DNA of 64,000 nucleotides from a virus (IMGVR_UViG_3300029220_000234:1-64000); one strand, 5' to 3'. Counted from the stretch's first letter, positions 1,884 through 63,114 are shown. A program made the numbers and translations. Notes: generated by a model not told the origin, from the sequence alone.

Positions 1884-3443
1884 TCAGGCAGCTTTCTTTG
1901 CTGCGTTGTCGGTAGCTTTTGCAGAAATTCTTTTGCGATGAATATCGTACCACTTTTCGAATTCTTTAAAATCGACTAATTTTTGAATTTCAGGAGTGGC
2001 CTTGTAATTATAGATTTCCTCAAATAAAGAAATAAGCTTATAGCCAAGGTCCTCCATGATTTTTGATTCATACTCGTTACCGTGTTTGTAGTTTTTCGGC
2101 AATACAATGTCATATTTTTTGTCAAAAGCTTTTAAGCCCGGTTCCAGTATACGAATAAAAGTATATCCGGCATTATGGATTTTGATGAATTTATAGCAAT
2201 CAACTCTTTTTTTGTCTTTATGCCAATATACACCATTGTACTCCATGCAAACCTTGCGAGTGTTATCGACAAAATCTACACCATATTTGTTGTTATAGCC
2301 AAAAATGTGACGAACTTCATCGAATGCATTTGGAACTCCGTTTTCCCTTGCAAAACCCATTGCAATACGAACAGCATACTGCTCTGGCTTGGAAATAAAA
2401 TTTGTCGTTTGATTACAATTACCACACATATAACTAATGCCTTGTGCAGTCAGATAATTAGCTGAAATCACCCATTTGTTACCACATTCAGGGCAATTAA
2501 GAAATAATGTTTTGTTGCTGGAATAAGAAACTTCACTTGCCTGATACGGACTATCTGGACGAATACAGTTAAGAATATCCTCTCGATTATTTTTCTTTAA
2601 GTAAGTTTCCAAATCCATATGATTAGCGAGAATTTTCGTATCGCGGCAATAAGGACATGGGTAAACTACATTTGTGACTTTGCAAATTTTAGCCTCAAAC
2701 TCTTTTTTGCAATCAGGACAAGTAAAACTTGCAACCGCATTGCTTCCCATAGTGTACTTTGTTGCAAAGTCAGCGTTTTTTTTGCTTAACATAGCAGCTA
2801 CTTGGGGGCAGGTCGTAGCTAAATCATTGTAGCCAACAACAACTTTAGTCCCATTACAGATAGGGCAGCCAGTAGTATTGCCTTTCGATTTTTTGATGCT
2901 TTTCACAAAGGATGTGACAGTCGTCTCAAATTCGTGCTTACATTTTGGGCAATTGAAAATTGCAGTCTTAGTGCTTTGGGCGAAAACTTCTGCTGGGTAG
3001 CATTTATTCTTTTCGCTCCACATTGCTACAGCCTGCGGGCATTGCGAAGCCAAATCATTAACTCCAACAATAGGTTTCGGATTGCGACGCGCTTTTTTTA
3101 CTTTGCGGCAATAAGGACATGGGCAAACTGCTATTGTGACACTGCAAATTTTAGCCTCAAACTCTTTCTTGCAGTCAGGGCAGACAAAAGTAAGTTTCCT
3201 GTTGCTTCCAGCAGTAACTTCAAAAGCAAAGTGCTTATCTTTCTCACTCAGCATTGCGGCAACTTCAGGAGCGACCGTAGCCAAATCGTTTTCTCCAACA
3301 ATCAGTTTTTGGCGAGTCTTTCTAGTTTTAGTAGCTTTCTTTTCCTCTTCCTCATACGGCATCTTAATGCCAAGAGTCGGAACAGATGCGCAAGCAGCGC
3401 AATTGCAGGTGTTGACATGCATAACCTTCACAAAAGTATTCAT
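1884..3443 (-). CDS. Multi-repeat Zn-ribbon (DUF4379-like NDLAT..P..AA.W..KN ... CP.C) protein with a C-terminal nuclease-like domain
   Basis: At least five tandem repeats of GxNDLAT.xPxxAAMWSxKN...FxCPxCxxEFE. The start is taken at MNTFVKV because a GAGGAGAAAAGAGG RBS sits 6 nt upstream. The C-terminal tail (...GYNNKYGVDFVD...MEYNGVYWHKD...) resembles a PD-(D/E)xK or Vsr-like fold. Confidence 0.6.
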   Translation of the reverse strand: MNTFVKVMHVNTCNCAACASVPTLGIKMPYEEEEKKATKTRKTRQKLIVGENDLATVAPEVAAMLSEKDKHFAFEVTAGSNRKLTFVCPDCKKEFEAKICSVTIAVCPCPYCRKVKKARRNPKPIVGVNDLASQCPQAVAMWSEKNKCYPAEVFAQSTKTAIFNCPKCKHEFETTVTSFVKSIKKSKGNTTGCPICNGTKVVVGYNDLATTCPQVAAMLSKKNADFATKYTMGSNAVASFTCPDCKKEFEAKICKVTNVVYPCPYCRDTKILANHMDLETYLKKNNREDILNCIRPDSPYQASEVSYSSNKTLFLNCPECGNKWVISANYLTAQGISYMCGNCNQTTNFISKPEQYAVRIAMGFARENGVPNAFDEVRHIFGYNNKYGVDFVDNTRKVCMEYNGVYWHKDKKRVDCYKFIKIHNAGYTFIRILEPGLKAFDKKYDIVLPKNYKHGNEYESKIMEDLGYKLISLFEEIYNYKATPEIQKLVDFKEFEKWYDIHRKRISAKATDNAAKKAA

Positions 3444-3484
3444 AATTATCCTCTTTTCTCCTCGTAACATTCGAGGCTTGCAAT

Positions 3485-3527
3485 AAAAAAACAGCCATCA
3501 TCCCCCATTGCAGGAAGATGATAGCTG
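3485..3527 (-). terminator. Intrinsic terminator or attenuator between the two Zn-ribbon genes
   Basis: Minus strand: CAGCTATCATC..loop..GATGATGGCTG followed by TTTTTTT, immediately 5' of the conserved leader and RBS of the downstream gene. Confidence 0.45.
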
Positions 3528-3568
3528 CTACATTTATAAGCCAACTTCGTATTAGATGGCTTTTTTTA

Positions 3569-4729
3569 TTATTCTTCAGTAGCTTTCTGACCGTGGTGAA
3601 GAGCACCACGGACAAATTGGTTCCAGCGAGCATGGTACAAAACGAACCCGTCTTCAAACTCCACCGTGATGTTGTTGACACCATGATAAGCGGTGCAGGT
3701 GGCTTTGCTGCCATTCTTCATCGTCATCGTAGTGCCGACAGATTTCGGAGAACCGTGCTCGTCCTTGCGAGCTGCGTTGATGGCACGCCCCTGCAGTCTG
3801 CAATTGGGGCAGCAAGTAACACCGGACGCAATAGCCCGCGTCATGTTGTGGATGCTTGTCACAAACTCTTGTTTGCAATCGGGGCACACAAAAATGGCGC
3901 GTCTGGACGAACGGGCAGGAATTTCGCTGGGGGCGTAATCGTTCTTGCCGCTCCACATAGCAGCAGCTTTTGGATACATGGTCGCCAAATCGTTGACGCC
4001 GGAAATAGCCTTGCGACCTGCACAAACAGGGCAACCGGTATTGTCATGCAACAAAGAATTGACGACGTTGCAAACGGGAGCCTTAAACTCCTGTTTGCAG
4101 TCGGGGCAGACAAACCATGCCATTTTGTTGTTGCCTGCAGATATCTTACCGGGAGAGCAAGCGTTTTTGTCGCTCCACATGTTGGCTGCCGCAGGGCACT
4201 TTGTAGCCAAGTCATTGATTCCAGAAACCACTTTCAAACCACGACAAACGGGACAACCGGTGCGATAACGCATCAAAGAGTTGACAACATTGCAAATGGA
4301 AGACTCAAACTCTTGTCCGCAATCAGGGCATACAAAGACGGCCTTTTTGTGGCTGCCTGCAGGTGCTTCGCTGGGAGAGCAAGCGTTCTTGTTGCTCCAC
4401 ATGGCGGCTGCTTTCGGGTATTTGGTAGCCAAATCGTTGATGCCGGAAACAATCTTTTTACCTGCACAAACAGGGCAACCAGTGTTACCGTTCATTACCG
4501 AACGAACAACACTAAAGATTTTGCTTTCAAATTCCTGCCCACAGTCTGGGCAAACAAATGTGAACTTTCTTCTGCTTCCCGCAGCCACTTTACTGGGAGA
4601 GAAGGTGTTCTTGTCACTCCACATGGCAGCGACCTTAGGGCATTTGGTAGCCACGTCATTGATGCCGGGGATAACTTTCTTGGAATTGGTAGTGTTGGTG
4701 TTGATGTTGGTGTTCATAGCGGTTTTCAT
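3569..4729 (-). CDS. Multi-repeat Zn-ribbon (DUF4379-like) protein, paralog of 1884..3443
   Basis: Six repeats of GINDLATK.P..AAMWS.KN...F.CPDC.QEF. The start at MKTAMNT follows the RBS GAGGAGAAAGAGAG. The 5' leader (CAAGCCTCGAA...TACGAGGAGAAA) is conserved with the paralog. Confidence 0.6.
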   Translation of the reverse strand: MKTAMNTNINTNTTNSKKVIPGINDVATKCPKVAAMWSDKNTFSPSKVAAGSRRKFTFVCPDCGQEFESKIFSVVRSVMNGNTGCPVCAGKKIVSGINDLATKYPKAAAMWSNKNACSPSEAPAGSHKKAVFVCPDCGQEFESSICNVVNSLMRYRTGCPVCRGLKVVSGINDLATKCPAAANMWSDKNACSPGKISAGNNKMAWFVCPDCKQEFKAPVCNVVNSLLHDNTGCPVCAGRKAISGVNDLATMYPKAAAMWSGKNDYAPSEIPARSSRRAIFVCPDCKQEFVTSIHNMTRAIASGVTCCPNCRLQGRAINAARKDEHGSPKSVGTTMTMKNGSKATCTAYHGVNNITVEFEDGFVLYHARWNQFVRGALHHGQKATEE

Positions 4730-4862
4730 AGCAAACTCTCTTTCTCCTCGTATTTTCGAGGCTTGTAAAATAAAAATAGCAGCTATCATTTTTACGATAA
4801 CTGCTTCATATATGAGCATACGGCGTGCAGCCGAATGTCATGCTGGAATTGGATAGAGTGGC

Positions 4863-5547: not shown

Positions 5548-5892
5548 ATGAGAAACAAAAACCTGACCGCTGCCGCTGCCATGGCAACCGCCACAGCCCT
5601 GATGCTTGCCGGATGTGCTACTCAGAAGCCTGCCGCTTCCTCGTCCGAAGCAGCTTCTACCGCCCCGGCTGAAAGTTCTGTGGTTGAGGAGACTACGCCG
5701 GAGGAAGCGCCTTCCGAGGTTACTGATGTAGACGAAGCTGCTGCGGAGGACCTGCTGTTGAGCACCGAAACGATGCACTACAGCGCTGATGATGAAGATG
5801 GCGTTGTTACCGTCCATAAGTACGATGAGAACGGCAATGAGGTTTTCATGCGTGAAATCGACAAAGCAAGTGATGTCAACAACCCCGCCTAA
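5548..5892 (+). CDS. Small secreted lipoprotein
   Basis: The RBS AAGGAGAA precedes MRNKNLTAAAAMATATALMLAGC (signal peptide with LAGC lipobox). Acidic S/T/E-rich mature part. The N-terminus in the ORF track is over-extended. Confidence 0.6.
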   Translation: MRNKNLTAAAAMATATALMLAGCATQKPAASSSEAASTAPAESSVVEETTPEEAPSEVTDVDEAAAEDLLLSTETMHYSADDEDGVVTVHKYDENGNEVFMREIDKASDVNNPA

Positions 5893-6192
5893 ACCGGTTC
5901 GCCGGTTATAGACGGGGCTTGCGGGGCAACCTGTAAGCCCAGTTGATTAGCCTAAGCCCATTGCTCCGGCAGTGGGGAAAACTACGTTGTGTACTAATAA
6001 TATAGGCACCTTATCCATGCTCCACAAGTGGTGAGCTCTGCAGGCGTTTCGTTAAACATCTCCGAGGGGAGGAGAAGTGCGAGCGTCATGTCGAAAGGCT
6101 AAAACAGTGCATAACATTGGCGAAGTGGACCACAGGACGCAAGTCCTGACTTATAGTTTTATTACTATTTTACGAATGGAGAAACAAAAATT

Positions 6193-7836
6193 ATGGTATA
6201 TGTGATTGCGATTGTGGCAGCCCTGATTATTCTCTTTGGATTTCTCTGCTACAAGAAAGCTCCGCCCACGGAGGCTATCGTTGTGACCGGCTTTGGTCTG
6301 TCTAAGCCTAAAGTAGTTTGCGGAAAAGGTACATTTGTTCTGCCCGTTCTTCAGCGGGCTGACCGGCTAAATATGCGCCTTCTGAAAATTGACGTCAAAA
6401 CTCCTGAAACAGGTGTTAAGACGAAGAACGGCGTAAGTCTCTGGATTGACTCTGTTGTCACGATTCAAGTCTACAGCGAAAACTCTACCGTTCTGGATGA
6501 AGAAGTGAAGGCATCCGGTCTGAAAGACGCCAAGGCGTACATCATGTCCCGCCAACAGGCAGCCATCTCGAACTTTCTGGGCATGAACGAGCAGGGCATC
6601 AATGAGAAAGTTAATGACGTTCTGCAGGGCAATTTGCGTGAGATTGTCTCTGACATGACCGTCGACCAAATTCTGACGAACCGCAAGCAGATGGCTGTGA
6701 GCGTTATCGAGAATGCTCGCCCCGACCTTGCTAAGATGGGACTTGAGGTCGTGACTTTTAACGTCCAGGATATCAGGGATGCGGTGGATGTTCAGGGCCA
6801 CAACCACGGCGTCATTGAGGCTATCGGCATTGAACAGGAAGAGCTTGTGAAAAAACAGGCTGAAATTGCCCGTGCTCAGGCTGCCCGTGATGTAGCCTGC
6901 GCGAAGGCCGATGCTGAGATGGCTGCAAATGCCAAGGAAGTTGAAGCGCAGACTGCGATTGCAAAACGCAACAATGAATTGCAGCTCGCCAAGGCAAAGC
7001 TGAAAGCTGAAGCTGATAAAGCTGCGGCTGACGCAGATGCTGCCGGTCAGATTCAGATGAATCTCCGCGCCAAAGAAATCAAAGAAGCGGAAGCGGATGC
7101 TGAAATCGCCAAGCAGAAGAAAATGGTAGACCTTGCCGCACAGGAAGCCGAGGTCCAGCAACGCAAACTGGATGCGGAAGTCCGCAAACAGGCAGATGCT
7201 GACCTGTACCGCCGCCAGAAAGAGGCAGAAGCCAAGAAATATGAGGCGGAACGTGCAGCTGAGGCACAGAAGTTCTCCAAGCAGCAGGAAGCAGAAGGCA
7301 TTGAACTTGTCGGTAAGGCAGAAGCTGAAGCGATTCGTCAGAAAGGCTTGGCTGAAGCGGAAGCCATGAAACAGAAAGCAGAGGCATATAAGCAGTATAA
7401 CGATGCGGCTGTGGCTGAAATGCTCATCAAGGTTCTTCCTGACATTGCCAAAAGCGTGGCTCAGCCTTTGTCCAGCATTGATAAGGTTTCTATCATTGGC
7501 GGTGACGCCTCCGGCGTATCCGGCGTTTCCGGGAACGTTCCTATCCTGATGGCTCAAACCATGCAGACGGTGAAAGAAGCGACCGGAATCGACATGGGCG
7601 AAATTGTCCGTGCCAACAGCATCCAGGCAAAGACCGACCGCAACATCAACATCATGAATCAAGGCGAACAGCCTGTGAATAGTGAAAAGGAAGGAGGTGT
7701 CAATGCTATGGAACGCGTAGAAGGCGGCTATCTAATTCATGAGAAGAGTCTCAACGGTGAGGAAGTCACTCATTTTCGACCGGATGTGACCGAAGAAGAG
7801 AAGGCTATCATGAAAGACAAAAAGGCCAAAGATTAA
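6193..7836 (+). CDS. Flotillin-like SPFH/band-7 domain protein
   Basis: An N-terminal TM helix, then an SPFH domain, then a long Ala/Glu/Lys-rich coiled coil (EAEA/AKAEA repeats) typical of FloT/YuaG-type flotillins. 547 aa. Confidence 0.85.
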   Translation: MVYVIAIVAALIILFGFLCYKKAPPTEAIVVTGFGLSKPKVVCGKGTFVLPVLQRADRLNMRLLKIDVKTPETGVKTKNGVSLWIDSVVTIQVYSENSTVLDEEVKASGLKDAKAYIMSRQQAAISNFLGMNEQGINEKVNDVLQGNLREIVSDMTVDQILTNRKQMAVSVIENARPDLAKMGLEVVTFNVQDIRDAVDVQGHNHGVIEAIGIEQEELVKKQAEIARAQAARDVACAKADAEMAANAKEVEAQTAIAKRNNELQLAKAKLKAEADKAAADADAAGQIQMNLRAKEIKEAEADAEIAKQKKMVDLAAQEAEVQQRKLDAEVRKQADADLYRRQKEAEAKKYEAERAAEAQKFSKQQEAEGIELVGKAEAEAIRQKGLAEAEAMKQKAEAYKQYNDAAVAEMLIKVLPDIAKSVAQPLSSIDKVSIIGGDASGVSGVSGNVPILMAQTMQTVKEATGIDMGEIVRANSIQAKTDRNINIMNQGEQPVNSEKEGGVNAMERVEGGYLIHEKSLNGEEVTHFRPDVTEEEKAIMKDKKAKD

Positions 7837-8861: not shown

Positions 8862-10556
8862 GTGACAAAAAAGAACATTTTCCCTGTGGTTGCAACCATT
8901 GCTGTGGTAGGCGTTGTTCTCGGAGTATTTTCGATGACGGTGATGAGGGACTCAAACGTCAGCATTAGTACAATGACGTCCGAGCAGGCATATGCCAACT
9001 TGAGCAGCAAGATGAAGCGCATCGGCGTGCAGGAGGTCAAGGTCAATCCTCAGCAGCTGGATGTCTCTGAATTCCTTGATGCAAAGGATGAACTGCCCGA
9101 CATTGAATCCTCCTACCCATTCGTGGTCGTAGGAAACGGAGATGTGAACATCGAAATCTTTTCCTCTGGCGAGAAAGCAGCAGAGTCCGGCTCAGATTCT
9201 TTCCTGACCGAAATGGCAAAGAAGTTCAACGCCCAGCACAACAAGACTTCCGGAGACAAGACTATGAGTGTCTCCCTGCGCTCCATTCCGTCCGGTACGG
9301 CGGCTGAGTACATCTCGACGGGAAAGTATCAGCCCGAGTGCTATACCCCCTCAAATACGCTCTTTGGCGAGCTGGTGAAGAACGAGGGCGTAGAATTGAC
9401 CGTTGAGGCTGACCGTCTGGTCGGCAATGTGGCGGGTATTCTCGTATCAAAGAAGACAGGGGATATGCTTCGCTCTGAATACGGTGAAGCGTCTGTTTCT
9501 TCCGTTCTGAACGCAACCATCGATGGCAAACTCATGATGGGATACTCGAACCCCTACACAAGTGCTACGGGTCTTAATTTTCTGCTTGAGGCTCTTGCGA
9601 GCAGCGGCAGCGATACGATTGTCGATACGGCTGCTGTTGAGAATTTCCAGAAATTTCAAGCGAACGTCCCTCTCGTATCCTTCACGACCCAGCAGATGGT
9701 CCAGTCGGCAGACAAGGGCATCGTGGACGGCGTTGTCATGGAGTATCAGTCTTATCAGAATGACCCGACCTTACAGCGCAACTACGAGTTCATCCCGTTC
9801 GGTGTACGGCACGATAATCCTCTGTATTCCATCGGGAATGTCTCTGCGGAGAAGAAGGAAGTTATTGCTGCCTTCGTTTCCTTCTGCGCTCAGAACCAGG
9901 CAGAGGCGACCAAGGACGGATTCAATGGTCTTGACGACTATGCTTATACAGGCAAGGCATACGATGGCAACACCATCGCACAGGCTCAGAGTGTCTGGAA
10001 AGAAGAGAAGGACTCAGGCATTCCTATTGTGGCAGAGTTCGTTGTCGATACTTCCGGCTCGATGCGCGGCGAACCCCTGAATGCCCTGAAAACCGCGATG
10101 ATAAACACCATCCAGTATATCAATGACGACAACTATATCGGCATCATTGGCTTTGATTCAGATGTCAGGGAATACCTGCCCATTAACCAGTTCTCTCTGA
10201 CCCAGAAAACTCTGTATAAGGGTGCCGTGAACTCCCTCGATGCGAACGGCAGCACCGCAATGTACAACGGTCTTTGCGTTGCTATGGACCGCATCTACCA
10301 GAAATCTCAGGAACTGGGTGGGAATTGCACGCCCATCATCTTTGTGCTCACGGACGGTGACAACAATACCGGATATGGCTTCTCCGATACGAAGAACATC
10401 ATTGCCGGTATGGATATCCCCATTTACACCATCAGCTACAACTACGCAGCGGATAGTCTTTCGGAGCTCGCTTCCATCAACGAAGCGGCAGCTATCGTCG
10501 GCAACAGCGAGGATATCACCTACAAGCTCCGCAACCTGTTTAACGCAGAGATGTAA
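8862..10556 (+). CDS. Membrane-anchored von Willebrand factor A (vWA) domain protein
   Basis: GTG start after a GAAAGGAGAAA RBS. N-terminal TM helix. C-terminal VVDTSGSMRGEPL...NGSTAMYNGL...FVLTDGDNN is a MIDAS-type vWA domain. Confidence 0.8.
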   Translation: MTKKNIFPVVATIAVVGVVLGVFSMTVMRDSNVSISTMTSEQAYANLSSKMKRIGVQEVKVNPQQLDVSEFLDAKDELPDIESSYPFVVVGNGDVNIEIFSSGEKAAESGSDSFLTEMAKKFNAQHNKTSGDKTMSVSLRSIPSGTAAEYISTGKYQPECYTPSNTLFGELVKNEGVELTVEADRLVGNVAGILVSKKTGDMLRSEYGEASVSSVLNATIDGKLMMGYSNPYTSATGLNFLLEALASSGSDTIVDTAAVENFQKFQANVPLVSFTTQQMVQSADKGIVDGVVMEYQSYQNDPTLQRNYEFIPFGVRHDNPLYSIGNVSAEKKEVIAAFVSFCAQNQAEATKDGFNGLDDYAYTGKAYDGNTIAQAQSVWKEEKDSGIPIVAEFVVDTSGSMRGEPLNALKTAMINTIQYINDDNYIGIIGFDSDVREYLPINQFSLTQKTLYKGAVNSLDANGSTAMYNGLCVAMDRIYQKSQELGGNCTPIIFVLTDGDNNTGYGFSDTKNIIAGMDIPIYTISYNYAADSLSELASINEAAAIVGNSEDITYKLRNLFNAEM

Positions 10557-10675
10557 CTCAAAAGCGCGGTTTTGTCCGCGCAGCTGCTCCAAAAGACAGC
10601 CTCCACGCGGCGAGCAGCGGGCAACGGGAGACAGTCCCGGCAAATTGTCTTTGAGACGGAAGGAAGAAGTGCCCT

Positions 10676-25794: not shown

Positions 25795-26165
25795 CACTGT
25801 TTTGCCACAGTTTTGCCTTGTGCATCCGTGCAAATTGAATATTATTGTAAATATAGGATGAATCAGTGTGAGCTGCAGAGATTAGGAATTCTGCGGCTCT
25901 TTCTTATGTGGCCCCTAAAAGTCGTGATAAATGCACGCGTGCGTTCTAAAAATGTGTGCGTGCGTTTTTTGTGTATTTTCACGCATTTATCGCTCGTTAT
26001 TTGTGTGGGGTAGTGTTTTGCCATAATTTTGCCTTGTGCATCCGTGCGAATTAAATATGATAAGAAATATAAGATAAATAAGTGTGAGCCGTAGAGATTG
26101 AGTTTCTGCGGCTCCTTTCTTTTGTGGTCCCCATGCGGATGAAAATGTCTGCGTGGGGTTTTTTT
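25795..26165 (+). repeat. Two tandem roughly 210-bp units, each with TTTGCC(A/T) direct repeats, a phage-type promoter and a hairpin
   Basis: Unit 1 spans about 25795-26010 and unit 2 about 26015-26165. They share TTTTGCCTTGTGCATCCGTGC(A/G)AATT...AATA...AGTGTGAGC.G.AGAGATT....TCTGCGGCTC. The second unit ends in CCCCATGCGG...CTGCGTGGGG followed by TTTTTTTT, directly before the GIY-YIG start. Confidence 0.6.
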
Positions 26166-26170
26166 TAATT

Positions 26171-27361
26171 ATGGAATACTTGTATAAGCAATATAACAAC
26201 GAACCCGGGAAAGCTCCGACAGGAGAAAAATATATATACGTTATTACTGAAATAGAAACAGGAAAAATGTATATAGGACAAACCAGTAATTTCCACGCTC
26301 GTATGCGTTCGCATAGAACCTGCAAGTGCAACCAACATAGCGCAATTGATAGAGCTATTCAAGAAAAAGGTGCGGACGCATTCCAATATGAGATTTTAGA
26401 GTTGTGTGCTGCTGATGACGCTGATAGCAGAGAACGATATTGGATAGAAAAATCCGATTCTTGCAATGAACAAAAAGGTTTCAATACGTTTAAGGGCGGC
26501 CAAAAGAGTTTTTCAGATGAAAACTACTCTATGCTTGTAGAAATGCTTCAGCAAGGAATGACATTAAAGACTGCGTGTGACGCTATAAATACCTCTATTG
26601 CTTCTGCAAGGAGAGAATTGAAGAGGCGAGACACAAATTTGTCGGAAATCCGCTGTTCGGCAGCCGAACATAAATATCTGCGCCGCAAAAGCACTCTCGG
26701 AAAAGAAATCAATATAGCTGACGTACTGAAAATGTATCAAAATGGCATGTCATCGAAAGAAATAGCAGAGCACTATGGTATGAACTCATCCGCTTTTTAT
26801 CGCCGGTTAAAAGAAAATGGGTTGAGCGCCAGAGCAATTGCTCAGCCAAATTACGGAACAGCATCTGCTCTTTTCGACAAAGATAAAGCTATTGCAATGT
26901 GTAAAGACGGATATTCTGCCAGCGAGATAGGCGATGCTATGGGATTGCCGTATTACACAATAGAGAGGCTTCTTCGAAAGTCTGGATATTCTATATCATT
27001 GATTGCAGATGAAGAAGCAGCAGATAAAAGAAAGAAGCGAAACAAAAAACGAAGCCAAAATGGAAACTTCAATTTTGAAATGGCCGTTGATTTTTTAAGA
27101 GAAGGTTACAAGATACAAGCGATAGCTGATTTGATGGGCATATCAGATGCTCACCTAAGAACAAAGCTCAAACAAAACGGCTTTGATTTAGAAAAAACGC
27201 TTCCAATTATAGTCTGTGACGAAACGGGCGAAACGTTTCTTACAATGATAGAAGCGGCAAAAGCGTACAACGTAAGCTATACATCACTACGGAAATGTTT
27301 TGAAAAAAAGCAGGGTTACTGTGGCGGCTACCATTGGCACAAAGAAAAGCAGAATTTTTGA
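26171..27361 (+). CDS. GIY-YIG homing endonuclease with C-terminal NUMOD / HTH repeats
   Basis: The catalytic module is KYIYVITEIETGKMYIGQTSNFHARMRSH...RERYWIEK. Four HTH repeats follow (...MSSKEIAEHYGMNSSAFYRRLKENG and similar), with a C-terminal IENR-like motif. No SD is visible. The start is taken at MEYLYKQ. Confidence 0.8.
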   Translation: MEYLYKQYNNEPGKAPTGEKYIYVITEIETGKMYIGQTSNFHARMRSHRTCKCNQHSAIDRAIQEKGADAFQYEILELCAADDADSRERYWIEKSDSCNEQKGFNTFKGGQKSFSDENYSMLVEMLQQGMTLKTACDAINTSIASARRELKRRDTNLSEIRCSAAEHKYLRRKSTLGKEINIADVLKMYQNGMSSKEIAEHYGMNSSAFYRRLKENGLSARAIAQPNYGTASALFDKDKAIAMCKDGYSASEIGDAMGLPYYTIERLLRKSGYSISLIADEEAADKRKKRNKKRSQNGNFNFEMAVDFLREGYKIQAIADLMGISDAHLRTKLKQNGFDLEKTLPIIVCDETGETFLTMIEAAKAYNVSYTSLRKCFEKKQGYCGGYHWHKEKQNF

Positions 27362-33810: not shown

Positions 33811-35073
33811 ATGCAATATGTGTATGTACTCAACAGGCACGGCGAGCCTATGATGCCGTGCTCACCCGGAAAGGCTCGTTTGCTATTAAAACAGCAAAAA
33901 GCATGCGTTGTAAAGCGCACACCGTTTACAATCAAGCTCCTGTGCGGAAGCGTGGGATACAAACAACCTATCACTTTGGGCGTTGACGCAGGCAGCAAGC
34001 ATGTTGGTTTGTCTGCATCTACCGAGAAGCGCGAACTCTACCGTGAGGAATTTACTCCTCGCAGCGATGTAGCAGAATTGCTTTCTACGCGCAAACAAAA
34101 CCGCCGTTCGAGACGCAACCGTAAGACCCGTTACCGCGCACCGAGATTTGATAATCGCGTCCATAGCAAGCATAAAGGTTGGCTGGCACCTTCGGTTGAG
34201 GTAAAAATTCAAGAGCATATTACCGTCATCAAGCATATCTGCAAAATTTTGCCTATCTCTCTTGTAAGAGTAGAAACAGCAGAGTTTGACACGCAGCGCT
34301 TGAAGGCAATGCTTGCTGGAAAGCCTCTTCCTGTAGGAACAGACTATCAGCTTGGCGAGATGTACGACGAATACAATGTCCGTCAGTATGTCTTGAAGCG
34401 TGACCATTACACTTGTCAATGCTGTGGTGCTCATAATACTGCCGAAAAAGTAGTCAAGCTGCATGTACATCATCTCGAAAGCCGTAAGACTGGCGGCAAC
34501 GCTCCAAGCAACCTTGTTACTTTGTGTACCACATGCCACAAGAACCTTCACAAAGGAAGAGTGACCCTTGACGGCAAGGAACGCGGCAAGCCTCTTCGTG
34601 ATGCTGCTTTCATGGGAATCATGCGCAAAACCTTAATGACACGTTTGAAAGAAGAGCTGCCTATCCCTGTTCAGAGGACTTATGGCTATATCACTAAAAT
34701 GCGCCGTGAGCAAAATGACATCAAGAAGAGTCATACAAACGATGCTCGCTGTATTAGCAAGCATCCACTGGCTGAGCCTTGCAGCGTTTGCTACCGTACA
34801 AAGGCTATCAGACACCATAATCGGCAAACCCATAAAGCAAATTTCTCTAAAGGTGGCTACCGGAAAAGAAGTCAAACACCTTATATCGTTGAAGGCTACC
34901 GCTTGTGGGACAAGGTTCTCTACAAAGGGCAAGAATGCTTTGTATCCGGCCGCCGCTCTTCGGGAAGTTTTGCACTTAAAAAGCTGGATGGTACGAGCAT
35001 CTCTAAAGGCGTGACATTCAAAAAGCTGCGACTTTTAGAGCCCGCAGCAAATTATTTAATTGAAAGGATGTGA
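33811..35073 (+). CDS. iscB: IscB (OMEGA RNA-guided nuclease; RuvC-HNH-RuvC with PLMP N-terminus)
   Basis: PLMP-type N-terminus HGEPMMPCSPGKARLLLKQQKA. RuvC-I ITLGVDAGSKHVGLS. Zn finger DHYTCQCCG. HNH HHLESRKTGGNAPSNLVTLCTTCHKNLH. Arg-rich bridge helix. 420 aa. Confidence 0.85.
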   Translation: MQYVYVLNRHGEPMMPCSPGKARLLLKQQKACVVKRTPFTIKLLCGSVGYKQPITLGVDAGSKHVGLSASTEKRELYREEFTPRSDVAELLSTRKQNRRSRRNRKTRYRAPRFDNRVHSKHKGWLAPSVEVKIQEHITVIKHICKILPISLVRVETAEFDTQRLKAMLAGKPLPVGTDYQLGEMYDEYNVRQYVLKRDHYTCQCCGAHNTAEKVVKLHVHHLESRKTGGNAPSNLVTLCTTCHKNLHKGRVTLDGKERGKPLRDAAFMGIMRKTLMTRLKEELPIPVQRTYGYITKMRREQNDIKKSHTNDARCISKHPLAEPCSVCYRTKAIRHHNRQTHKANFSKGGYRKRSQTPYIVEGYRLWDKVLYKGQECFVSGRRSSGSFALKKLDGTSISKGVTFKKLRLLEPAANYLIERM

Positions 35074-44194: not shown

Positions 44195-44340
44195 TTACTC
44201 GACAAGCTGTGCGAACTGACTACAATAAAAAATGTACGATAGATAACAAACATCGAAAAAGGCATTCTGCCTTTCGTACAATTCACAATTCTGCAGACAT
44301 AAGGCAGACTCACCGTCTTGGTGGGCCTGCCTTTTTTGTT
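44195..44340 (+). promoter_or_regulatory. Promoter-leader-terminator module A
   Basis: GTGCGAA(44209), TACAATAA(44221), GTACGATAGATA(44234), TCGTACAATTCACAATTCTGC(44274), hairpin AGGCAGACTCACCGTCTTGGTGGGCCTGCCT plus TTTTTTG, then the RBS. Confidence 0.6.
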
Positions 44341-49648: not shown

Positions 49649-50980
49649 GTGAAAATAACTTCAAGCTATGCCGTAGAAATAAAAAAGCAGCGGATGTTCG
49701 ATGATACTATAAAATTGTATCGTGAAGCCGTTTCTTTCTTGATTGATTGCTTTAATAAAGAATGGCTGGCAATTCAATCAGTTGATAAGGCGAAAGCCAA
49801 ATTCAACTTTGCTGAAAAGCTGGTACATACAACAAAATACAATGTAGCAAAGTATGATTTTGATGCCAAATTCTATAAGTTTCCCAGCTACTTGCGCAGA
49901 GCTGCTATTCAAGCGGCATTGGGCTCGGTAAGCAGTTACCGCAGCAACTACAAGAACTGGGAAGCTAACGGTAAGGTTGGCAATGAGCCGAAGCTACAAT
50001 GCGATAGGTTTTGTTTCCCGACTTTCTATAAAACCGTTATGTTTACTGAAAGCAATGAACCTAACCAGTGCTACTTAAAGCTGTATAGCAAAAATGACTG
50101 GGTTTGGGTTCCTGTTGCAATGCGTGCTACCGATGTGAAGTACATCACGAAATACTGGTCGCATTGCCAAAAGAGTGCTCCCACTCTCGAAAAGAAGTAC
50201 GGAAAGTATTTCCTACGCTTCGCTTTCGAAGAAGAGGTGAAGCTCTCTGATACTGAAATTCAGGATAGGCGTATCTGCGCTGTTGACCTTGGCCTCAATA
50301 CCGACGCTGTGTGCAGCATCATGACTGCCGATGGAACTGTCATTGCAAGAAAGTTTATCAATTTTGCAAGTGAAAAAGACCATCTGTATCATGTGCTAAA
50401 CCGTATTAAGCGTAAACAAAGGGAACGCGGTCCCAAGAGCACTGCCGCTATGTGGCGATACGCCAAAGCCTTGAATGATGATATAGCGAAAAAGGTGGCT
50501 GCCGCCATTACCGAGTTTGCAGTGCTTTACTCTGTCGATGTAATTGTTTTTGAACATTTATCATTTACAGGCAAAAAGCACGGCGGCAGTAAAGCACAAA
50601 AGTTGTCGATGTGGAAGCGTAATTCTATACAGGATTATATAGAACATAAGGCGCATCGCTGCGGCATCCGTATTTCGCGTATCTGCGCTTGGGGGACAAG
50701 CAAACTTGCCTTTGATGGCAGCGGTTCTCTCAAGCGTGATGAAACCAACCACGCCATTGCAGCTTTTGCAAGTGGCAAACGATACAACTGTGACCTTAGT
50801 GCGAGCTACAACATTGGCGCTCGCTACTTTGTCAGAGAGTTGCTAAAACCCTTGCCAGTGATGGTGAGGTCTCAGCTTTCGGCTAAAGTTCCGGAAGCTG
50901 AGCGTAGAATCCAAGTTACACTTGCCACGCTTAAAGTCTTGTACCCTGAGTATCAAAAACTTACGGCACAAGCAGCGTAA
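49649..50980 (+). CDS. tnpB: TnpB-like RNA-guided nuclease (IS200/IS605 OrfB family) lacking the C-terminal Zn finger
   Basis: GTG start after GGAAAGGAGG. RuvC-I RICAVDLGLNTDAVCS. RuvC-II VDVIVFEHLSF. WGTSKL. RuvC-III-like NCDLSASYNIGARYF (D..S..NI). There is no CxxC...CxxC. Confidence 0.8.
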   Translation: MKITSSYAVEIKKQRMFDDTIKLYREAVSFLIDCFNKEWLAIQSVDKAKAKFNFAEKLVHTTKYNVAKYDFDAKFYKFPSYLRRAAIQAALGSVSSYRSNYKNWEANGKVGNEPKLQCDRFCFPTFYKTVMFTESNEPNQCYLKLYSKNDWVWVPVAMRATDVKYITKYWSHCQKSAPTLEKKYGKYFLRFAFEEEVKLSDTEIQDRRICAVDLGLNTDAVCSIMTADGTVIARKFINFASEKDHLYHVLNRIKRKQRERGPKSTAAMWRYAKALNDDIAKKVAAAITEFAVLYSVDVIVFEHLSFTGKKHGGSKAQKLSMWKRNSIQDYIEHKAHRCGIRISRICAWGTSKLAFDGSGSLKRDETNHAIAAFASGKRYNCDLSASYNIGARYFVRELLKPLPVMVRSQLSAKVPEAERRIQVTLATLKVLYPEYQKLTAQAA

Positions 50981-57577: not shown

Positions 57578-57722
57578 ACTTGTCAGCATGTGCGAATCAG
57601 AGATAATGGTATATGTACGATAGATACCATCTACAAAAAGGCGTTATTTGCGCTCGTACAAAATTCATAATTGCGCTTCATGGCGGACTTCCTGAGAAAT
57701 CGGGAGGCCCGCCTTTTTGCGT
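57578..57722 (+). promoter_or_regulatory. Promoter-leader-terminator module E
   Basis: TTGTCAGCATGTGCGAATCAGAGATAAT, GTACGATAGATACCAT(57616), CTCGTACAAAATTCATAATTGCGC, hairpin GGCGGACTTCCTGAGAAATCGGGAGGCCCGCC plus TTTTTG. Confidence 0.6.
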
Positions 57723-58738: not shown

Positions 58739-59332
58739 ATGATGTTGTCTGAGTTCGAGAAGCTCACCGGCTTAAAGGTTACGACAGCAGAATACGCAAA
58801 AATTGAGGCTGAATATATGGAAAGCCCCGATGACAAAGCAAAGTTCTGCAAGATGTGGCTCAAAAAAGGAGGGCTTCAAAAGCTCCATAACGCAAGGCTT
58901 GAGGAAATTGAACATCTGAAAAAGACCATCAAGGACCTTGAGCACAAACTTGATGAAGAGCAAGACTGGCAGATTTCTCATAAGTACGGCACGCACTACC
59001 AAAAAACATCTTATGACCATCTTACCAAACGCTGCTCTAATGAGCATCAGTTTGAGTCCGAGGCGAAAGCTGCAGAGTTCATCAGTTCTCAGTATGGTTT
59101 CGACAAAGATAGGATTGTCTTTATCCACGATGTCGAAGTCTATGAGACGAATCGGCACGGAATAACGCGTCTGAAAGAACGGCTTACTCGTTTTCCTTAC
59201 TATGTCGGTTGCAGAGCAAACTATGCACGTTTCGATGTGCGTTGCTGCGGCGGGAGTATGCAATGGGAACTTGTAGACGGAGAACTTAAAGACTATTCCA
59301 CGCCTCCATTTTTACCCGATGGGGAGCAATAG
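58739..59332 (+). CDS. Hypothetical protein
   Basis: RBS AAAGGAGCGTGAAGAACT-ATG. Confidence 0.5.
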   Translation: MMLSEFEKLTGLKVTTAEYAKIEAEYMESPDDKAKFCKMWLKKGGLQKLHNARLEEIEHLKKTIKDLEHKLDEEQDWQISHKYGTHYQKTSYDHLTKRCSNEHQFESEAKAAEFISSQYGFDKDRIVFIHDVEVYETNRHGITRLKERLTRFPYYVGCRANYARFDVRCCGGSMQWELVDGELKDYSTPPFLPDGEQ

Positions 59333-59433
59333 TTCCCCAAGAATCATCACACCGCACAGGCCCCAATGATGCCTGTGCATGATTTTTTGTATTTCATAAA
59401 ACCATCAATGTTTCAAAAGGAGTGTGTAAGCAC

Positions 59434-59838
59434 ATGATTACTTTACCTACTAACCATCCCTATTTCTTCACTTGCCCGTCTTGTGGCTGCAAACTCATTT
59501 CCGTTTCTACCGGCAACCGAGCCAAACCCCATTGCCCAAAGTGCAACTACTCAGCCGATGATGCTTTTGTGGTCAAAGACCGCGTTACGAGCGAGGCCAT
59601 GAATGTCATCGCTGACAACACAGAACTGGCTGAAAACTTTGCCGAAACCGTGAAGCGTGAAATCGCGAACGATGACGATTCATATGCACACATCGGTTTC
59701 CACTTGGCAAACGACATTCGGAATCAGAGTCCCGCGTCCGAAGTGCTCCTAACCCTCTGTGGCTGGACCATCGAGACGCTGCTTGACAAGACGCCGCCCA
59801 TCGCAATCGATGAAGGCGACAACAACAATGAAAAATAA
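59434..59838 (+). CDS. Small Zn-ribbon protein. Its 3' 100 nt are duplicated at 61555..61655
   Basis: RBS AAAGGAGTGTGTAAGCAC-ATG. CPSCGC...CPKCNY. Confidence 0.5.
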   Translation: MITLPTNHPYFFTCPSCGCKLISVSTGNRAKPHCPKCNYSADDAFVVKDRVTSEAMNVIADNTELAENFAETVKREIANDDDSYAHIGFHLANDIRNQSPASEVLLTLCGWTIETLLDKTPPIAIDEGDNNNEK

Positions 59839-59853
59839 GAGGTATACAAAAAA

Positions 59854-60264
59854 ATGTTTGAATTAAATCTTTCCAACGCTCTGGCGTTGATTGACCAGCC
59901 CGTGTGGGTCGTCACTGAAGTGCGCAGCCGCAACAAGAACGGTCGCATCTACGCAAAGTCACGTGCGAAAAGCACGGTTTATCCCGGAAACATTCAGACC
60001 GTCAGCGTTTGGCGCGGCTATACTCGCGCCGGAGACAGCGTCGGTGCGCCAAAGTGTACTGTTGAAGTCTGCATCCATACCGGCGATGACCTTGCTGACA
60101 ATGTCATCCTACCCGCTGAGCTGCTGAATGTTACGGTGTTTGACAAGAAAGAGGATGCCGAAAAAGAGCTGGCGTACCTCAACGCCAACATGAACACTAT
60201 GACATTCTCTGAACAGCGTCAGCGTGAAAACAAAAAAAACGCAACTGTATTCGGAATCGCTTGA
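59854..60264 (+). CDS. Hypothetical protein
   Basis: RBS AAGAGGTATACAAAAAA-ATG. Confidence 0.45.
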   Translation: MFELNLSNALALIDQPVWVVTEVRSRNKNGRIYAKSRAKSTVYPGNIQTVSVWRGYTRAGDSVGAPKCTVEVCIHTGDDLADNVILPAELLNVTVFDKKEDAEKELAYLNANMNTMTFSEQRQRENKKNATVFGIA

Positions 60265-60282
60265 GGCACCCTAGATTTTTCT

Positions 60283-60420
60283 GCTTGCCACTTTATGCGA
60301 GTCGGATATAATTAGAACTGTACGATAGATACCATTCTACAAAAGCACATCTTGTGCTCGTACGGTTCACAATTCTGCTTTAAGGTGGACTTCTCATTAC
60401 GAGAGGTCCGCCTTTTTGTT
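60283..60420 (+). promoter_or_regulatory. Promoter-leader-terminator module F
   Basis: CTTGCCACTTTATGCGAGTCGGATATAAT, GTACGATAGATACCAT(60320), CTCGTACGGTTCACAATTCTGC, hairpin AAGGTGGACTTCTCATTACGAGAGGTCCGCC plus TTTTTG. Confidence 0.6.
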
Positions 60421-60447
60421 TAACTATGAAAAAAGGAGTGTTTTATC

Positions 60448-61521
60448 ATGACCGAAAACGAAAAAGCAAGAGAGCTCATAGCTACCTCTGAAACGACCGT
60501 GAAGGTTGACCCCCAGAACGGCTGGTATCTCAAGCGGTTTGCCGCCCTGCAGTTTGAGGGCTCCGTGGACAATTTCAGCACAAATATGCCAATTCATGTC
60601 CTTGAACAGCAGCTTCCGAAAGATGATACCATGAAGTTGGATGACGCTGTCGCTGAAGGTCAAGATATCGATTACAGCAAGTTTTATGACGAAGATGGCT
60701 GCAGCTATTCGTCGGTCAGCGAGCTTGTAGAAGTACAGCTCGGCCTTGACGATGACGATTCAATTCGGGAATATAACGAGGAAAACCCTGACTTGCCGTA
60801 CATCCCGTATGAAAAGCTGCAGGAAATGGATACGAAGGATATTCCGGAATTGTTGTTGTCTGTCACTGATGAGGCCGACTATGTGGATGCATACAAGGAA
60901 GTAACCGATATCGCATCTTGGAATGTGGAAGTCACTCCCATGAGCAACAACTATGAAGCCATGGGATTCGCGTTCACGCATCAGGGACTCAAAGAGTACG
61001 AAAAGTCCATCGATAACCATATTTTCCATTCCTGCCGTACATATGCCTATGCAGGGGAGCAGCACAACCGCCGCGAGGGCGATTTTTATCCCATCATGGA
61101 ATTCCTGCACAGCGCCGGTGAACAGCTTCTGGTTGACGACCTTAAGCGGTTCGATGTCAAGGTGATGGAACTCGCTACTGCGGAAGAGGTGGAAAATCTT
61201 TATCGAACCGTTCCCAATGAGCCGCATCAGGCTGCTTATATCAAGGTCATGGATAGAAAAACGAATACGGTATATAGCCGCATCTATGTTTTCTGTGCAG
61301 GCCAAGAAGAGAAGTGCCTCAACGGCGATACTTATCTGAGCAATAAGCAGCATTATGTCTTGGTCAAAAAGGGTGACGATACCTATAAGGTTCCTTATCC
61401 GTTTGACTGTGATAAGACAGTTGAAGCCCTGAATAAGAAGTCCGAAAAGGAAGAGACACTGACCGCAGCACAGCGGCTGTTCTTCTGGGCAGAATACAAG
61501 AAAACTATCAAGTTGGATTGA
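60448..61521 (+). CDS. Hypothetical protein, paralog of 61866..62945
   Basis: Colinear similarity throughout (..LKRFAALQFEGSVDNFSTNMPIHVL.. versus ..LKQYAALQFPGSVDNFGTKTPIHLL..). Confidence 0.55.
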   Translation: MTENEKARELIATSETTVKVDPQNGWYLKRFAALQFEGSVDNFSTNMPIHVLEQQLPKDDTMKLDDAVAEGQDIDYSKFYDEDGCSYSSVSELVEVQLGLDDDDSIREYNEENPDLPYIPYEKLQEMDTKDIPELLLSVTDEADYVDAYKEVTDIASWNVEVTPMSNNYEAMGFAFTHQGLKEYEKSIDNHIFHSCRTYAYAGEQHNRREGDFYPIMEFLHSAGEQLLVDDLKRFDVKVMELATAEEVENLYRTVPNEPHQAAYIKVMDRKTNTVYSRIYVFCAGQEEKCLNGDTYLSNKQHYVLVKKGDDTYKVPYPFDCDKTVEALNKKSEKEETLTAAQRLFFWAEYKKTIKLD

Positions 61522-61554
61522 GGCAAATAAGCCAAGAAATTGCAACCCATGTGG

Positions 61555-61655
61555 TTGCGTCAGAGTCCCGCGTCCGAAGTGCTCCTAACCCTCTGCGGCT
61601 GGAACATTGACACGCTACTCGACAAAACGCCTCCCATCGCTATCGAGGACTGACG
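61555..61655 (+). repeat. Roughly 100-bp duplicate of the 3' end of gene 59434..59838 (gene fragment)
   Basis: CAGAGTCCCGCGTCCGAAGTGCTCCTAACCCTCTG(C/T)GGCTGGA...ACGC(T/C)(A/G)CT(C/T)GACAA(A/G)ACGCC(T/G)CCCATCGC matches 59716-59825 at about 90% identity. Confidence 0.6.
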
Positions 61656-61698
61656 CCATTGGTACTGTCCAGAACGTCAAAACTTTGGCACAAATACG

Positions 61699-61840
61699 CC
61701 TTGCCGATACGTGCGAATCAGAGATAATAATATTTGTACGATAGATATCATTTGTCTTTGACAAGGTCTCTTGTGCATGTACTATTCACAATTTCGTTGA
61801 AGAGCGGACTTCTTGTTATTCAGGAAGCCCGCTTTTTATA
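61699..61840 (+). promoter_or_regulatory. Promoter-leader-terminator module G
   Basis: CTTGCCGATACGTGCGAATCAGAGATAATAA, GTACGATAGATATCAT(61736), GCATGTACTATTCACAATTTCG, hairpin AGAGCGGACTTCTTGTTATTCAGGAAGCCCGCT plus TTTTTA. Confidence 0.55.
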
Positions 61841-61865
61841 TTAAATTTTAAGGAGTGTATTATCT

Positions 61866-62945
61866 ATGTCTAACAAAACAAACCAATCCGTTCTGGTCAA
61901 TGACACCAGCAGCTACTACCTCAAGCAGTATGCAGCCCTGCAGTTCCCGGGCTCCGTTGACAATTTCGGGACCAAGACACCCATTCATCTTTTGCAGCAG
62001 CAAGAAGAATCTGAGCGCAGCGTATCCTTACGTGAAGCTTGCGATTCGGACTATGACCTCGATGGTGCGCAGTTCTTGTTCGAGGGCGCGACTTATGACT
62101 CGGTGACAGATTTGGTCAAGGACAATCTGTGCCTTGACGACGAAGAATCGATTCAGAAATACAATGAGCATCCTCGGTTTGACCCGTTTATTCCGTACGA
62201 TGAACTGGTTGACAAAAAGAATGCCGACAGGGAAGACATCCGCGATATTCGTGATTCGCACCGTCTCGACACGATGGCCGACTATGTCGATATGTACTCC
62301 ACGGCAAGCGGGTATGATACAGCAGATGACATCACGGTTCTGCTTCCTTCTTCCTCGTATGAAACTGTGGGTATGGCGTTCACACATCAGGCTCTCAAGC
62401 AGTATGAGAAGTCGATTGACAATCATCTGTTCCGTAAGCACCGTTGCTATGCGGCGTGCGGAGAAGGCTATGGCCGTGAAGCTGGCGACTACTATCCCAT
62501 CATGAATTTTATTCGTGATGCAGGGGAACAGCTGCTGGTTCAGGACCTTGAGAATTTCGATGTCAAGGTCATGGAACTCGCTTCCGACGATGAAGTCGCT
62601 GACTTTTATTGCGAACATCCTCACGAGTTGTTTCGAGCTGCTTATATCAAAGTCTCTGAAAAAGACACCATTGGCAAATGCTATTCTCGTCTGTACGTCT
62701 TTTGCTCCGGTCACGAGGAAACCTTCTCTGACGGAAGCAGTTTCCCGGTTTGCGACAGCCATTATGTCAAGGCCGTCAAGGAAGGGAAGGAATACAAAGT
62801 TCCTTATCCTTTTGACTGCAACCGTTTCGCCGATGAACTGAACAAAAAGTCCAATGAAAAGGAACGCTTGACACCCGCTCAGCGTCTCTTCTTCTGGACC
62901 GAATACAAACGTACAAATGATTTAAGGAGAAAAAGAAATGATTAG
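61866..62945 (+). CDS. Hypothetical protein, paralog of 60448..61521
   Basis: See 60448..61521. Confidence 0.55.
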   Translation: MSNKTNQSVLVNDTSSYYLKQYAALQFPGSVDNFGTKTPIHLLQQQEESERSVSLREACDSDYDLDGAQFLFEGATYDSVTDLVKDNLCLDDEESIQKYNEHPRFDPFIPYDELVDKKNADREDIRDIRDSHRLDTMADYVDMYSTASGYDTADDITVLLPSSSYETVGMAFTHQALKQYEKSIDNHLFRKHRCYAACGEGYGREAGDYYPIMNFIRDAGEQLLVQDLENFDVKVMELASDDEVADFYCEHPHELFRAAYIKVSEKDTIGKCYSRLYVFCSGHEETFSDGSSFPVCDSHYVKAVKEGKEYKVPYPFDCNRFADELNKKSNEKERLTPAQRLFFWTEYKRTNDLRRKRND

Positions 62946-63114
62946 ATTCTATATTTCCAATCCGGATGATTTTGACGAAGCCTGTGAGGCTCTTGACTCC
63001 TGCGGTGTTGAATTTGAATTGGACGGAGGCGACCGCATTATAGTTGAAGATGAACTTCGCCAGGATGCGCTCAGTGTCTTCGACGAATATGACATTGATG
63101 CTGAGGAGGTCTGA
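62938..63114 (+). CDS. Small acidic protein, family member 1 of 3
   Basis: ATGA-coupled. MIRFYISNPDDFDEACEALDSCGVEFELDGGDRIIVEDE... is shared with 63330..63497. Confidence 0.35.
   Translation: MIRFYISNPDDFDEACEALDSCGVEFELDGGDRIIVEDELRQDALSVFDEYDIDAEEV

Follow-up and report, generated by a model that had tools for sequence, protein, structure and literature searches.

Two divergent alleles of one accessory locus in a human-gut phage, probably placed in tandem by a single illegitimate crossover

Known systems of phage gene exchange and the locus examined

In the model of Hendrix and Hatfull, phage mosaicism is said to arise through novel joints, which are formed by illegitimate recombination between genomes. 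Morons, reportedly described by Juhala and colleagues in 2000, are autonomous units of promoter, gene and terminator that are inserted between phage genes. The DNA analyzed here is a stretch of 64,000 nucleotides from a virus (IMGVR_UViG_3300029220_000234:1-64000), referred to below as the window. Between its positions 59,434 and 62,945, two colinear genes, C1 and C2, are each located behind a leader module (modules F and G, respectively), and a fragment of an upstream gene, gene A, lies between them. A reading based on the sequence only had attributed this arrangement to recombination between modules, acting in an integron-like or diversity-generating way. Our analysis indicates instead that the region very probably consists of two allelic versions of one locus, here called X and Y, that were joined by a single unequal illegitimate crossover and later underwent a small deletion.

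Illegitimate novel joints have been discussed in contrast to homeologous recombination (PMC2327257), and phage mosaicism has been the subject of a survey (PMC8136500). The promoter-early stem-loops (PeSLs) of T4-type phages are mobile regulatory cassettes (Arbiol et al. 2010, PMC2839356; Comeau et al. 2014, PMC4122927). In these two papers, the PeSL is a repeat made up of a promoter and a stem-loop, found in ORFan-rich regions, and the shorter of two genomes carries a single chimeric motif, as for ORF192 of RB49 compared with phi1. Mini-circles, in which cargo and motif are excised together as circular DNA, are a further trait associated with PeSLs. Gene cassettes of integrons have also been reported in phages (PMC9892861).

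A megablast comparison of positions 59300-63100 with 50,697 deposited phage genomes yielded no match. The region is abundant in IMG/VR and in human-gut metagenomes, and the closest isolates share only the helicase, with about 51% amino-acid identity (Faecalibacterium phage Lugh). Because the scan of representative bacterial genomes returned a single match, namely a metagenome-assembled genome of a Clostridiales bacterium (L045), the host can be assigned only loosely, probably to the gut Clostridia. The region is a hypervariable accessory locus, and the phage or prophage that carries it is widespread in the human gut.

Parental arrangements and the TCAGA joint

We mapped the genes and modules of the window onto 44 related loci from gut-phage contigs (numbered with the prefix L). 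The flanks of the locus are conserved, with the YopX-like 57740 gene on one side, and gene D (62938..63114, 58 aa), which is kept downstream of the locus in all forms, together with the 63118 gene on the other. Form X, found in about 25 contigs, consists of gene A, gene B, module F, a C1-type gene, a spacer and a small gene, S. Form Y, found in 11 IMG/VR contigs (L032-L037, L039, L041-L044), lacks gene B, module F and C1; its full order is A' (an allele of gene A), a 46-nt spacer, module G, C2, S, a further small gene, Z, and gene D. Both gene sets are present in form XY, i.e., in the window, in L001-L003 and in many metagenome contigs.

In the window, where all of the genes and modules of the locus lie on the plus strand, the X part begins with gene A (59434..59838; 134 aa from the ATG at 59434, in a frame that is open from the GTG at 59422). 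This resident allele is of the form-X type, and its product is 95-96% identical to that of gene A in the form-X relatives L004 and L016. It is followed by gene B (59854..60264, 136 aa), which occurs in forms X and XY and is absent from form Y and from L016; by module F (60284-60421, or to 60447 with the ribosome-binding site of C1); by C1 (60448..61521, 357 aa), the form-X allele of the hypervariable gene C; and by a remnant (61522..61559) of the spacer that in form X separates C1 from S. Nucleotides 61523-61564 (42 nt) are 95-98% identical to the sequence following C1 in L004, L006, L010-L013 and L028, all of which run on into S.

The Y part begins with the gene fragment, or orphan (61560..61653), which comprises the last 30 codons and the stop codon of A'. 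In form Y, A' is a full-length gene whose product ends in ...PPIAIED*; over its last 93 nt, the identity to the orphan is 99-100%, and in 10 form-Y contigs it is 100%. The orphan is followed by the form-Y spacer between A' and module G (61654..61699, 46 nt), by module G (61700-61841, or to 61865 with the ribosome-binding site of C2) and by C2 (61866..62945), the form-Y allele of gene C, which has 359 aa in the window and 352 aa in relatives. Positions 39-178 of the orphan query are 99-100% identical in all form-Y loci, and the second unit of the window is 97-100% identical to the stand-alone form Y.

Within the window, the orphan and gene A form a 90-nt ungapped direct repeat (61560-61649 and 59724-59813) of 89% identity, and a tblastn search with the gene A protein (59422/59434) matches 61558-61650 with E=4.6e-13. 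The sequence-only reading had described this repeat as a copy of about 100 nt and about 90% identity of the 3' end of gene A, corresponding to exactly the segment that precedes module F. The copy is indeed there. However, it reaches only codons ~101-130, and the homology stops at ~59813/61649; that is, the last 25 nt of gene A are not included, and the orphan has a stop codon of its own at 61651-61653. The order A, B, module F is likewise as described, but gene B (59854-60264) sits between gene A and the module. The pairing of two colinear paralogs, each behind its own leader module, held up in full: C1 and C2 are colinear over their entire length, with 49% amino-acid and 57% nucleotide identity, and F and G are genuine members of one repeat family. 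F and G are not identical to each other, though, as the earlier description of identical modules would have it; their identity is 70%. The two 'paralogs' are pre-existing, deeply diverged alleles of one locus that have been brought into tandem.

A three-way alignment of the forms places the crossover to within a few bases. Form X reads ...GGTTGCG TCAGA TTGAAAGAAAAAGGAG, with TTGAAAG directly after the shared bases; the ribosome-binding site of S is located here. Form Y reads ...ACATTCGGAA TCAGA GTCCCGCGTCC, with TTCGGAA before and GTCCCGC after the shared bases, at codon 101 of A'. The window reads ...GGTTGCG TCAGA GTCCCGCGTCC. That is, the window corresponds to X through 61559 and to Y from 61565, and the 5 bp at 61560..61564 are the only sequence common to both parental forms at the crossover, since the flanking bases differ between X and Y. 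The joint sits 38 nt past the stop codon of C1. It is separated from module G, downstream, by 140 nt and from module F, upstream, by 1140 nt. It lies outside any module or repeated sequence, and on the Y side it falls in former coding sequence. A small hairpin in the X spacer (61542-61558; 6-bp stem, GCAACC...GGTTGC) adjoins it.

The position of the joint bears directly on the proposal that the footprint was made by module-mediated homologous recombination, whereby an unequal exchange between F and G, or between other modules, duplicated or inserted the segment A tail-module-C. Recombination from module to module does act in this phage family, as the chimeric module of L020 and the cassette indels described below indicate. 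At the XY joint, however, the parents share 5 bp and the modules are at a distance; both F and G are intact, non-chimeric and diverged; and a module-to-module exchange would leave no truncated coding fragment. The location of the joint outside repeats therefore indicates that module-mediated homologous recombination did not make it, and we regard that origin as very improbable.

The identical 26-nt joint is found in L001-L003 (IMG/VR), in seven contigs from ENA metagenomes (L046-L052) and in nine of ten further assemblies (L053-L062), the latter being those that encode an identical C1 protein. In total, at least 20 contigs besides the window, each assembled independently, contain the joint. 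In a base-by-base comparison of 10 contigs, the 178-nt orphan region shows 0-3 substitutions. The index of the assembly collection lists the exact C1 protein for 386 blocks. The joint is single in origin and fairly recent, and the XY haplotype is a successful one.

This distribution also bears on two other explanations. The first is an assembly chimera of co-occurring X and Y strains, which could be suspected from the fact that X, Y and XY contigs all occur in one large metagenome project (IMG/VR 3300045988); an artefact had been foreseen by the sequence-only reading for the case that the fragment were absent from relatives, which it is not. The contigs sharing the joint come from different assemblers and studies, the 5 bp in common are far below the k-mer of any assembler, and the XY contigs are long (up to 293 kb) with varied flanks, so that the probability of a chimera is negligible. 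The second is a tandem duplication in situ, in which the segment from the 3' end of gene A through the module to gene C was copied within one genome and the copies then diverged. In favor of it, the segments are colinear in both copies (A tail, module, C). Divergence, however, is uneven across the supposed duplicate, with nucleotide identities of 89% for orphan and A tail, 70% for F and G, and 57% for C1 and C2. Moreover, the second copy matches a stand-alone arrangement that exists elsewhere with a full-length A', i.e., form Y is an independent source, and gene B is absent from the second unit. This unequal divergence therefore rules out, for practical purposes, a duplication in situ, which we consider extremely improbable. 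Because the same joint recurs in so many contigs, it is neither an assembly artefact nor the product of such a duplication.

The orphan and the tail of the resident gene A differ by 10 substitutions, which involve all four bases; 7 are synonymous, and the 3 that are non-synonymous are conservative. The predominance of synonymous differences means that they arose at a time when each copy was a functional gene in a lineage of its own. The pattern is the one expected of two functional alleles diverging apart, and not that of a decaying pseudogene.

It might also be argued that the orphan has been kept for a function, either as a 34-aa peptide (61549-61653) bearing the C-terminal motif of protein A, or as DNA needed by the promoter of module G. 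The orphan is in frame with an ATG at 61549 and ends at its native stop, it is nearly invariant in XY genomes, and the same DNA always precedes module G in form Y. Nevertheless, no Shine-Dalgarno sequence is found before 61549, and the reading frame acquired this ATG by chance; the ATG was contributed by the X spacer, and some X relatives lack it (CCTATGTGG / CCCATATGG). The near-invariance is explained equally well by a recent origin, and the few substitutions in the orphan region include one non-synonymous change. Finally, other modules work behind unrelated upstream DNA. Retention for a function is thus an improbable explanation of the orphan.

The explanation that we favor is therefore a single illegitimate crossover, whose course may be envisaged as follows. 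An X and a Y genome would probably have met in one cell, through co-infection or through infection of a lysogen. One breakpoint was in the X spacer, 38 nt past the C1 stop; in the Y genome, the break fell at codon 101 of A'. The ends may have been joined by microhomology-mediated end joining or by template switching. The product keeps the intact gene A of X, so that the truncated A', i.e., the orphan, is tolerated. It also carries C1 and C2 one behind the other, and the promoter-leader-terminator module that each of them had before is still in place. The XY haplotype then spread, and in the sub-lineage of the window a second illegitimate deletion removed 423 nt, including S and Z, giving C2 a new tail of 11 residues. 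One X/Y crossover explains the orphan, the tandem 'paralogs' and the presence of a separate module before each of them.

Some points weigh against this account. The exact X parent is unsampled: the nearest form-X C1 without C2 is 92-94% identical, as compared with 97-99% on the Y side. Because this parent is missing, the direction and the timing of the event are inferred. A microhomology of 5 bp may arise by chance at a blunt joint, and the designation 'microhomology-mediated' is thus not proven; co-infection of one host by X and Y is likewise a presumption drawn from the sequences. Lastly, expression of the 34-aa reading frame over the orphan is conceivable, in which case the fragment would be no mere scar.

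The XY joint is a textbook illegitimate novel joint of the kind that characterizes phage mosaicism. As in other mosaic joints, related genomes are joined with essentially no homology (5 bp). The placement is harmless, being in an intergenic spacer on one side and, on the other, in a gene that is intact elsewhere in the genome. The flanks have later been reshuffled by homologous recombination, as is seen from the 58739 gene and the upstream alleles, which vary among XY relatives. Both parental arrangements exist, few bases are shared, and the joint is identical in its carriers. Unlike in the usual case, the two parental arrangements and the product have all been sampled, and the event can be reconstructed to the base; also, two alleles of one gene have been stacked in tandem and not replaced one by the other. 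With both parents, the product and a later derivative represented in public metagenomes, the locus provides a base-resolved natural example of the origin of a phage mosaic. It also calls for caution in annotation, in that the tandem 'paralogs' are stacked alleles, the reading frame at 61549-61653 is a gene remnant, and the tail of C2 is the product of a deletion in evolution.

Regulatory modules and cassette turnover at other sites

Modules F and G belong to a family with about eight full copies at 44-62 kb of the window, where module starts were located at 44198, 51149, 52856, 55246, 57579, 60284 and 61700 (the last extending to 61841); partial copies are found at 5447, 32376 and 33338. With a profile made from seven of the window copies, 3-9 modules are detected per related locus. 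In each module, a sigma-70-like promoter is followed by the conserved leader TGTACGATAGATACC ... TCGTAC ... AATTCACAATTCTGC; then come a GC-rich hairpin with its T-run and, last, a ribosome-binding site. In module F, for example, the -35 element is at 60285, the -10 element ends at 60312, and the leader TGTACGATAGATACC...TCGTAC is followed by the terminator hairpin (60382-60414) with its T-run and by the ribosome-binding site of C1. Promoter hexamers are present at 57580-57607 as well. The terminator stem covaries at 9 pairs across the module copies, and a comparison of the modules with Rfam, at the gathering threshold and also at E<=1, returned no family. The modules recur every 0.7-4 kb across 44-62 kb, and the genes behind them have either no match or matches only to PHROG families of unknown function.

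Every module of the window has the same layout, with a conserved leader of about 60 nt that contains a GTACGA...TCGTAC stem, then an intrinsic terminator, and then the gene. The hairpin thus lies about 100 nt downstream of the promoter, after the leader, and the terminator is located between the promoter and the gene that it precedes. Therefore, transcripts from the module promoter should stop before the gene unless they are antiterminated. As judged from the sequence, this layout suggests either a phage-wide switch based on attenuation and antitermination, or a family of small RNAs of about 110 nt.

To follow the modules through the relatives, we split the related loci at the modules, clustered the cargo segments, and looked in pairwise alignments for the signature of a chimeric module. 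An automatic census of indels gives too high a number of 'replacements', as diverged alleles do not reach the 85% cut-off, and only its overlap classes are used here. In the relatives, whole units of cargo plus module are gained or lost between conserved neighbors. L020 has a single module (9236-9381) that can be aligned over its full length with each of the two modules surrounding an extra cargo of 623 nt in L023, and likewise with those around a different cargo of 325 nt in L045. The L020 module matches the left of the flanking modules exactly in its 5' half and the right one exactly in its 3' half, with the switch inside ATTGTACGATAGATACCAT. At least five distinct cassette indels show overlaps of 136-229 nt that span the whole module, and wherever the flanking modules differ enough, the switch from left to right falls inside the module. 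As with L020, module-bounded indels with one chimeric module in the shorter genome are seen between L005 and L006, between L006 and each of L010 and L024, and between L034 and L035. Every cassette crossover that can be mapped falls in the invariant core TGTACGATAGATACCAT, with an identical core of 17-19 nt.

Many other indels have overlaps of 0-14 nt and are located away from modules. Since module-bounded and short-overlap indels are both seen, both processes shape the region; that is, illegitimate joining and recombination between repeated regulatory modules operate side by side in one accessory region. The modules are portable homology, by which units of cargo plus module are added or removed through homologous recombination in the conserved core. 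The module-mediated exchange of cassettes that the sequence-only reading had envisaged is accordingly borne out at other sites in the relatives, by chimeric single modules, but not at the 61560 joint. A fixed gene order among the relatives, which would have spoken against such exchange, is not observed; different cargo is found between conserved modules. Both mechanisms are already known, and the locus is a clean new example, with no new recombination system.

Of the described systems, the PeSLs come close to these modules in several respects. Both are repeated intergenic units with a sigma-70-like promoter and a terminator stem-loop; in both cases, the copies are concentrated in a hyperplastic region of small ORFans, immediately upstream of the ORFans; and close relatives differ by whole units of open reading frame (ORF) and motif, with one chimeric motif in the shorter genome, which here applies to sites other than the 61560 joint. 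Unlike the PeSLs, the modules belong to an unrelated lineage, i.e., that of the gut Clostridia phage with the Lugh-like helicase noted above. They have no sequence similarity to PeSLs, and they have a conserved, structured leader of ~60 nt after the promoter and a terminator between the promoter and its own gene. Moreover, the stem-loop of a PeSL is placed within or upstream of the promoter, whereas the module hairpin is ~100 nt downstream of it, and in this respect the modules are not PeSLs. With these differences, module-bounded cassette turnover of the PeSL type, so far from T4-type phages of Gram-negative hosts, is extended to a very common lineage of gut Clostridia phages.

The cargo genes also resemble morons, in that they are independent transcription units with their own promoter and terminator, present or absent between conserved neighbors. 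Classical morons, however, are not known to have in common a repeated regulatory module that serves as recombination homology. The resemblance to integrons consists of an array of small, diverse, exchangeable genes that are parted by a recurring element. However, each unit begins with its own promoter, whereas integron cassettes are promoterless and stand behind the common Pc promoter, and the crossovers are homologous and occur in a linear core, as opposed to the folding of attC and site-specific exchange. Among the approximately 39 ORFs that were scanned with Pfam or PHROGs, which are part of the ORFs of the window, there is neither an IntI-type integrase (tyrosine recombinase) nor a reverse transcriptase. 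The integron reading was rejected on account of this lack of IntI, the separate promoters and the crossovers in a linear core. A diversity-generating retroelement was rejected on account of the lack of reverse transcriptase in the same set and of the 10 substitutions between orphan and gene A, which are not adenine-specific and are mostly synonymous. The identity of C1 and C2, moreover, is 57% along the whole length of the genes, which is against the pattern of such an element. Both labels, 'integron-like' and 'diversity-generating', are hence unsupported.

A more far-reaching possibility, which we consider unlikely, is that the modules are an undescribed, PeSL-like class of mobile regulatory cassettes of abundant human-gut Clostridia phages, in which the core TGTACGATAGATACCAT acts beyond passive homology. 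The core could be a candidate binding site of an antitermination or regulatory factor, or a candidate target of a nearby-encoded nuclease (GIY-YIG, HNH, IscB-like or TnpB-like) that would stimulate cassette exchange. If this were true, an active core together with the recurrent illegitimate stacking of C alleles would constitute a dedicated engine for the diversity of accessory genes.

Recurrent events, gene products and other features of the window

A second illegitimate joint is present in the window at 62907..62910. In other XY relatives and in Y relatives, C2 is a protein of 352 aa ending in ...EYKKPIE*, and is followed by S (66 aa), Z (62 aa, a zinc ribbon) and D. In the window, the 423 nt that carry S and Z are missing, with an overlap of at most 3 nt at the joint (the missing segment is, for example, 8462-8885 of L003). 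The C2 of the window ends in ...EYKRTNDLRRKRND*; its last 11 residues are new and result from fusion of C2 to the tail of Z, and its stop overlaps the ATG of gene D. Because the exact C2 of 359 aa is found on 8 other contigs, it represents a genuine derived sub-lineage. S and Z follow C2 in ten of the ten other XY contigs shown among the carriers of the exact C1, and the window-type joint is absent from those ten.

Similar events have recurred at this locus. In L005 (7086-8072), the ORF downstream of C1 fuses residues 1-83 of S to the C-terminal half of another C allele, whose part in the fusion is 89% identical to residues 208-352 of the C protein of L017; a second copy of S follows. This fusion of S and C, found also in L006-L012, L014 and L028, arose independently, by another unequal illegitimate crossover that joined divergent versions of the locus. 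In L016 (5971-6001, compared with 59853-60429 of the window), gene B and module F are precisely absent, and gene C stands directly behind gene A with no promoter module; the breakpoints are in A-runs before two ribosome-binding sites, with an A-run overlap of 5 nt. In L030 and L031, gene B abuts gene C with no module in between. L011-L015 and L028 have a C1-like allele with different first ~26 residues and an unrelated upstream gene context (5820-6000 in L028), where the C allele is preceded by a different arrangement of promoter, leader, terminator hairpin and ribosome-binding site. Thus, the same regulatory layout is found with other sequence in another phage background. A separate observation concerns an XY relative, L053 (2947-3817), in which the YopX-like gene is cut to 155 aa and abuts gene B, and gene A and the 58441 gene are missing.

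Among the alleles of gene C in the relatives, amino-acid identities to C1 are 100, 92, 88, 75, 67, 55 and 49%. Because illegitimate events recur at the locus and the alleles cover this range, gene C is a hotspot of allelic diversity. At the 50% identity level, a set of 1.8 billion proteins contains 131 representatives of it. No Pfam, PHROG or PDB-sequence match was obtained for it, even with a 25-member profile, and its predicted model, which is confident (pLDDT 84.9), has no significant structural neighbor. The hypervariability of gene C and its place among accessory ORFans would fit a role in host interaction or counter-defence. Since the gene has no sequence-family or structural match, any selective value of two C alleles in one genome is speculative. 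As for the neighboring genes, the gene A product has an N-terminal CxxC...CxxC zinc ribbon, with a weak match to the RNHCP zinc-ribbon family of Pfam that is below the cut-off, and genes B and D belong to no known family.

Some other features were noted elsewhere in the window. A HEARO RNA at 5875-6135 (Rfam, 91 bits, above the gathering score) is located directly upstream of an ORF of 547 aa (6193-7836), as would be expected for an IscB-type RNA-guided nuclease element, here putatively within a phage. A further HNH protein is encoded at 33811-35073, and a TnpB-like transposase at 49649-50980. An HDV-like ribozyme of the F. prausnitzii type (10583-10652; 60 bits, compared with a gathering score of 44) lies 27 nt past an ORF of 564 aa (8862-10556). 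On the minus strand at 2695-4681, two adjacent genes (1884-3470 and 3569-4819) contain repeated treble-clef zinc-finger (DUF4379) domains, encoded by DNA repeats whose periods are 222 and 231 nt. A Y-family DNA polymerase (254-1555) is their neighbor, and this left end of the window may represent host DNA or a distinct module. An 86-nt direct repeat of 85% identity (25798-25883 and 26014-26099) is found just upstream of a GIY-YIG homing-endonuclease-like gene (26153-27361) and holds a second type of promoter (TTGTGCATCCGTGCRAATT..TAT.AT). Approximately 11 promoters of this second type (TGTGCGAA) are spread over 8-51 kb.

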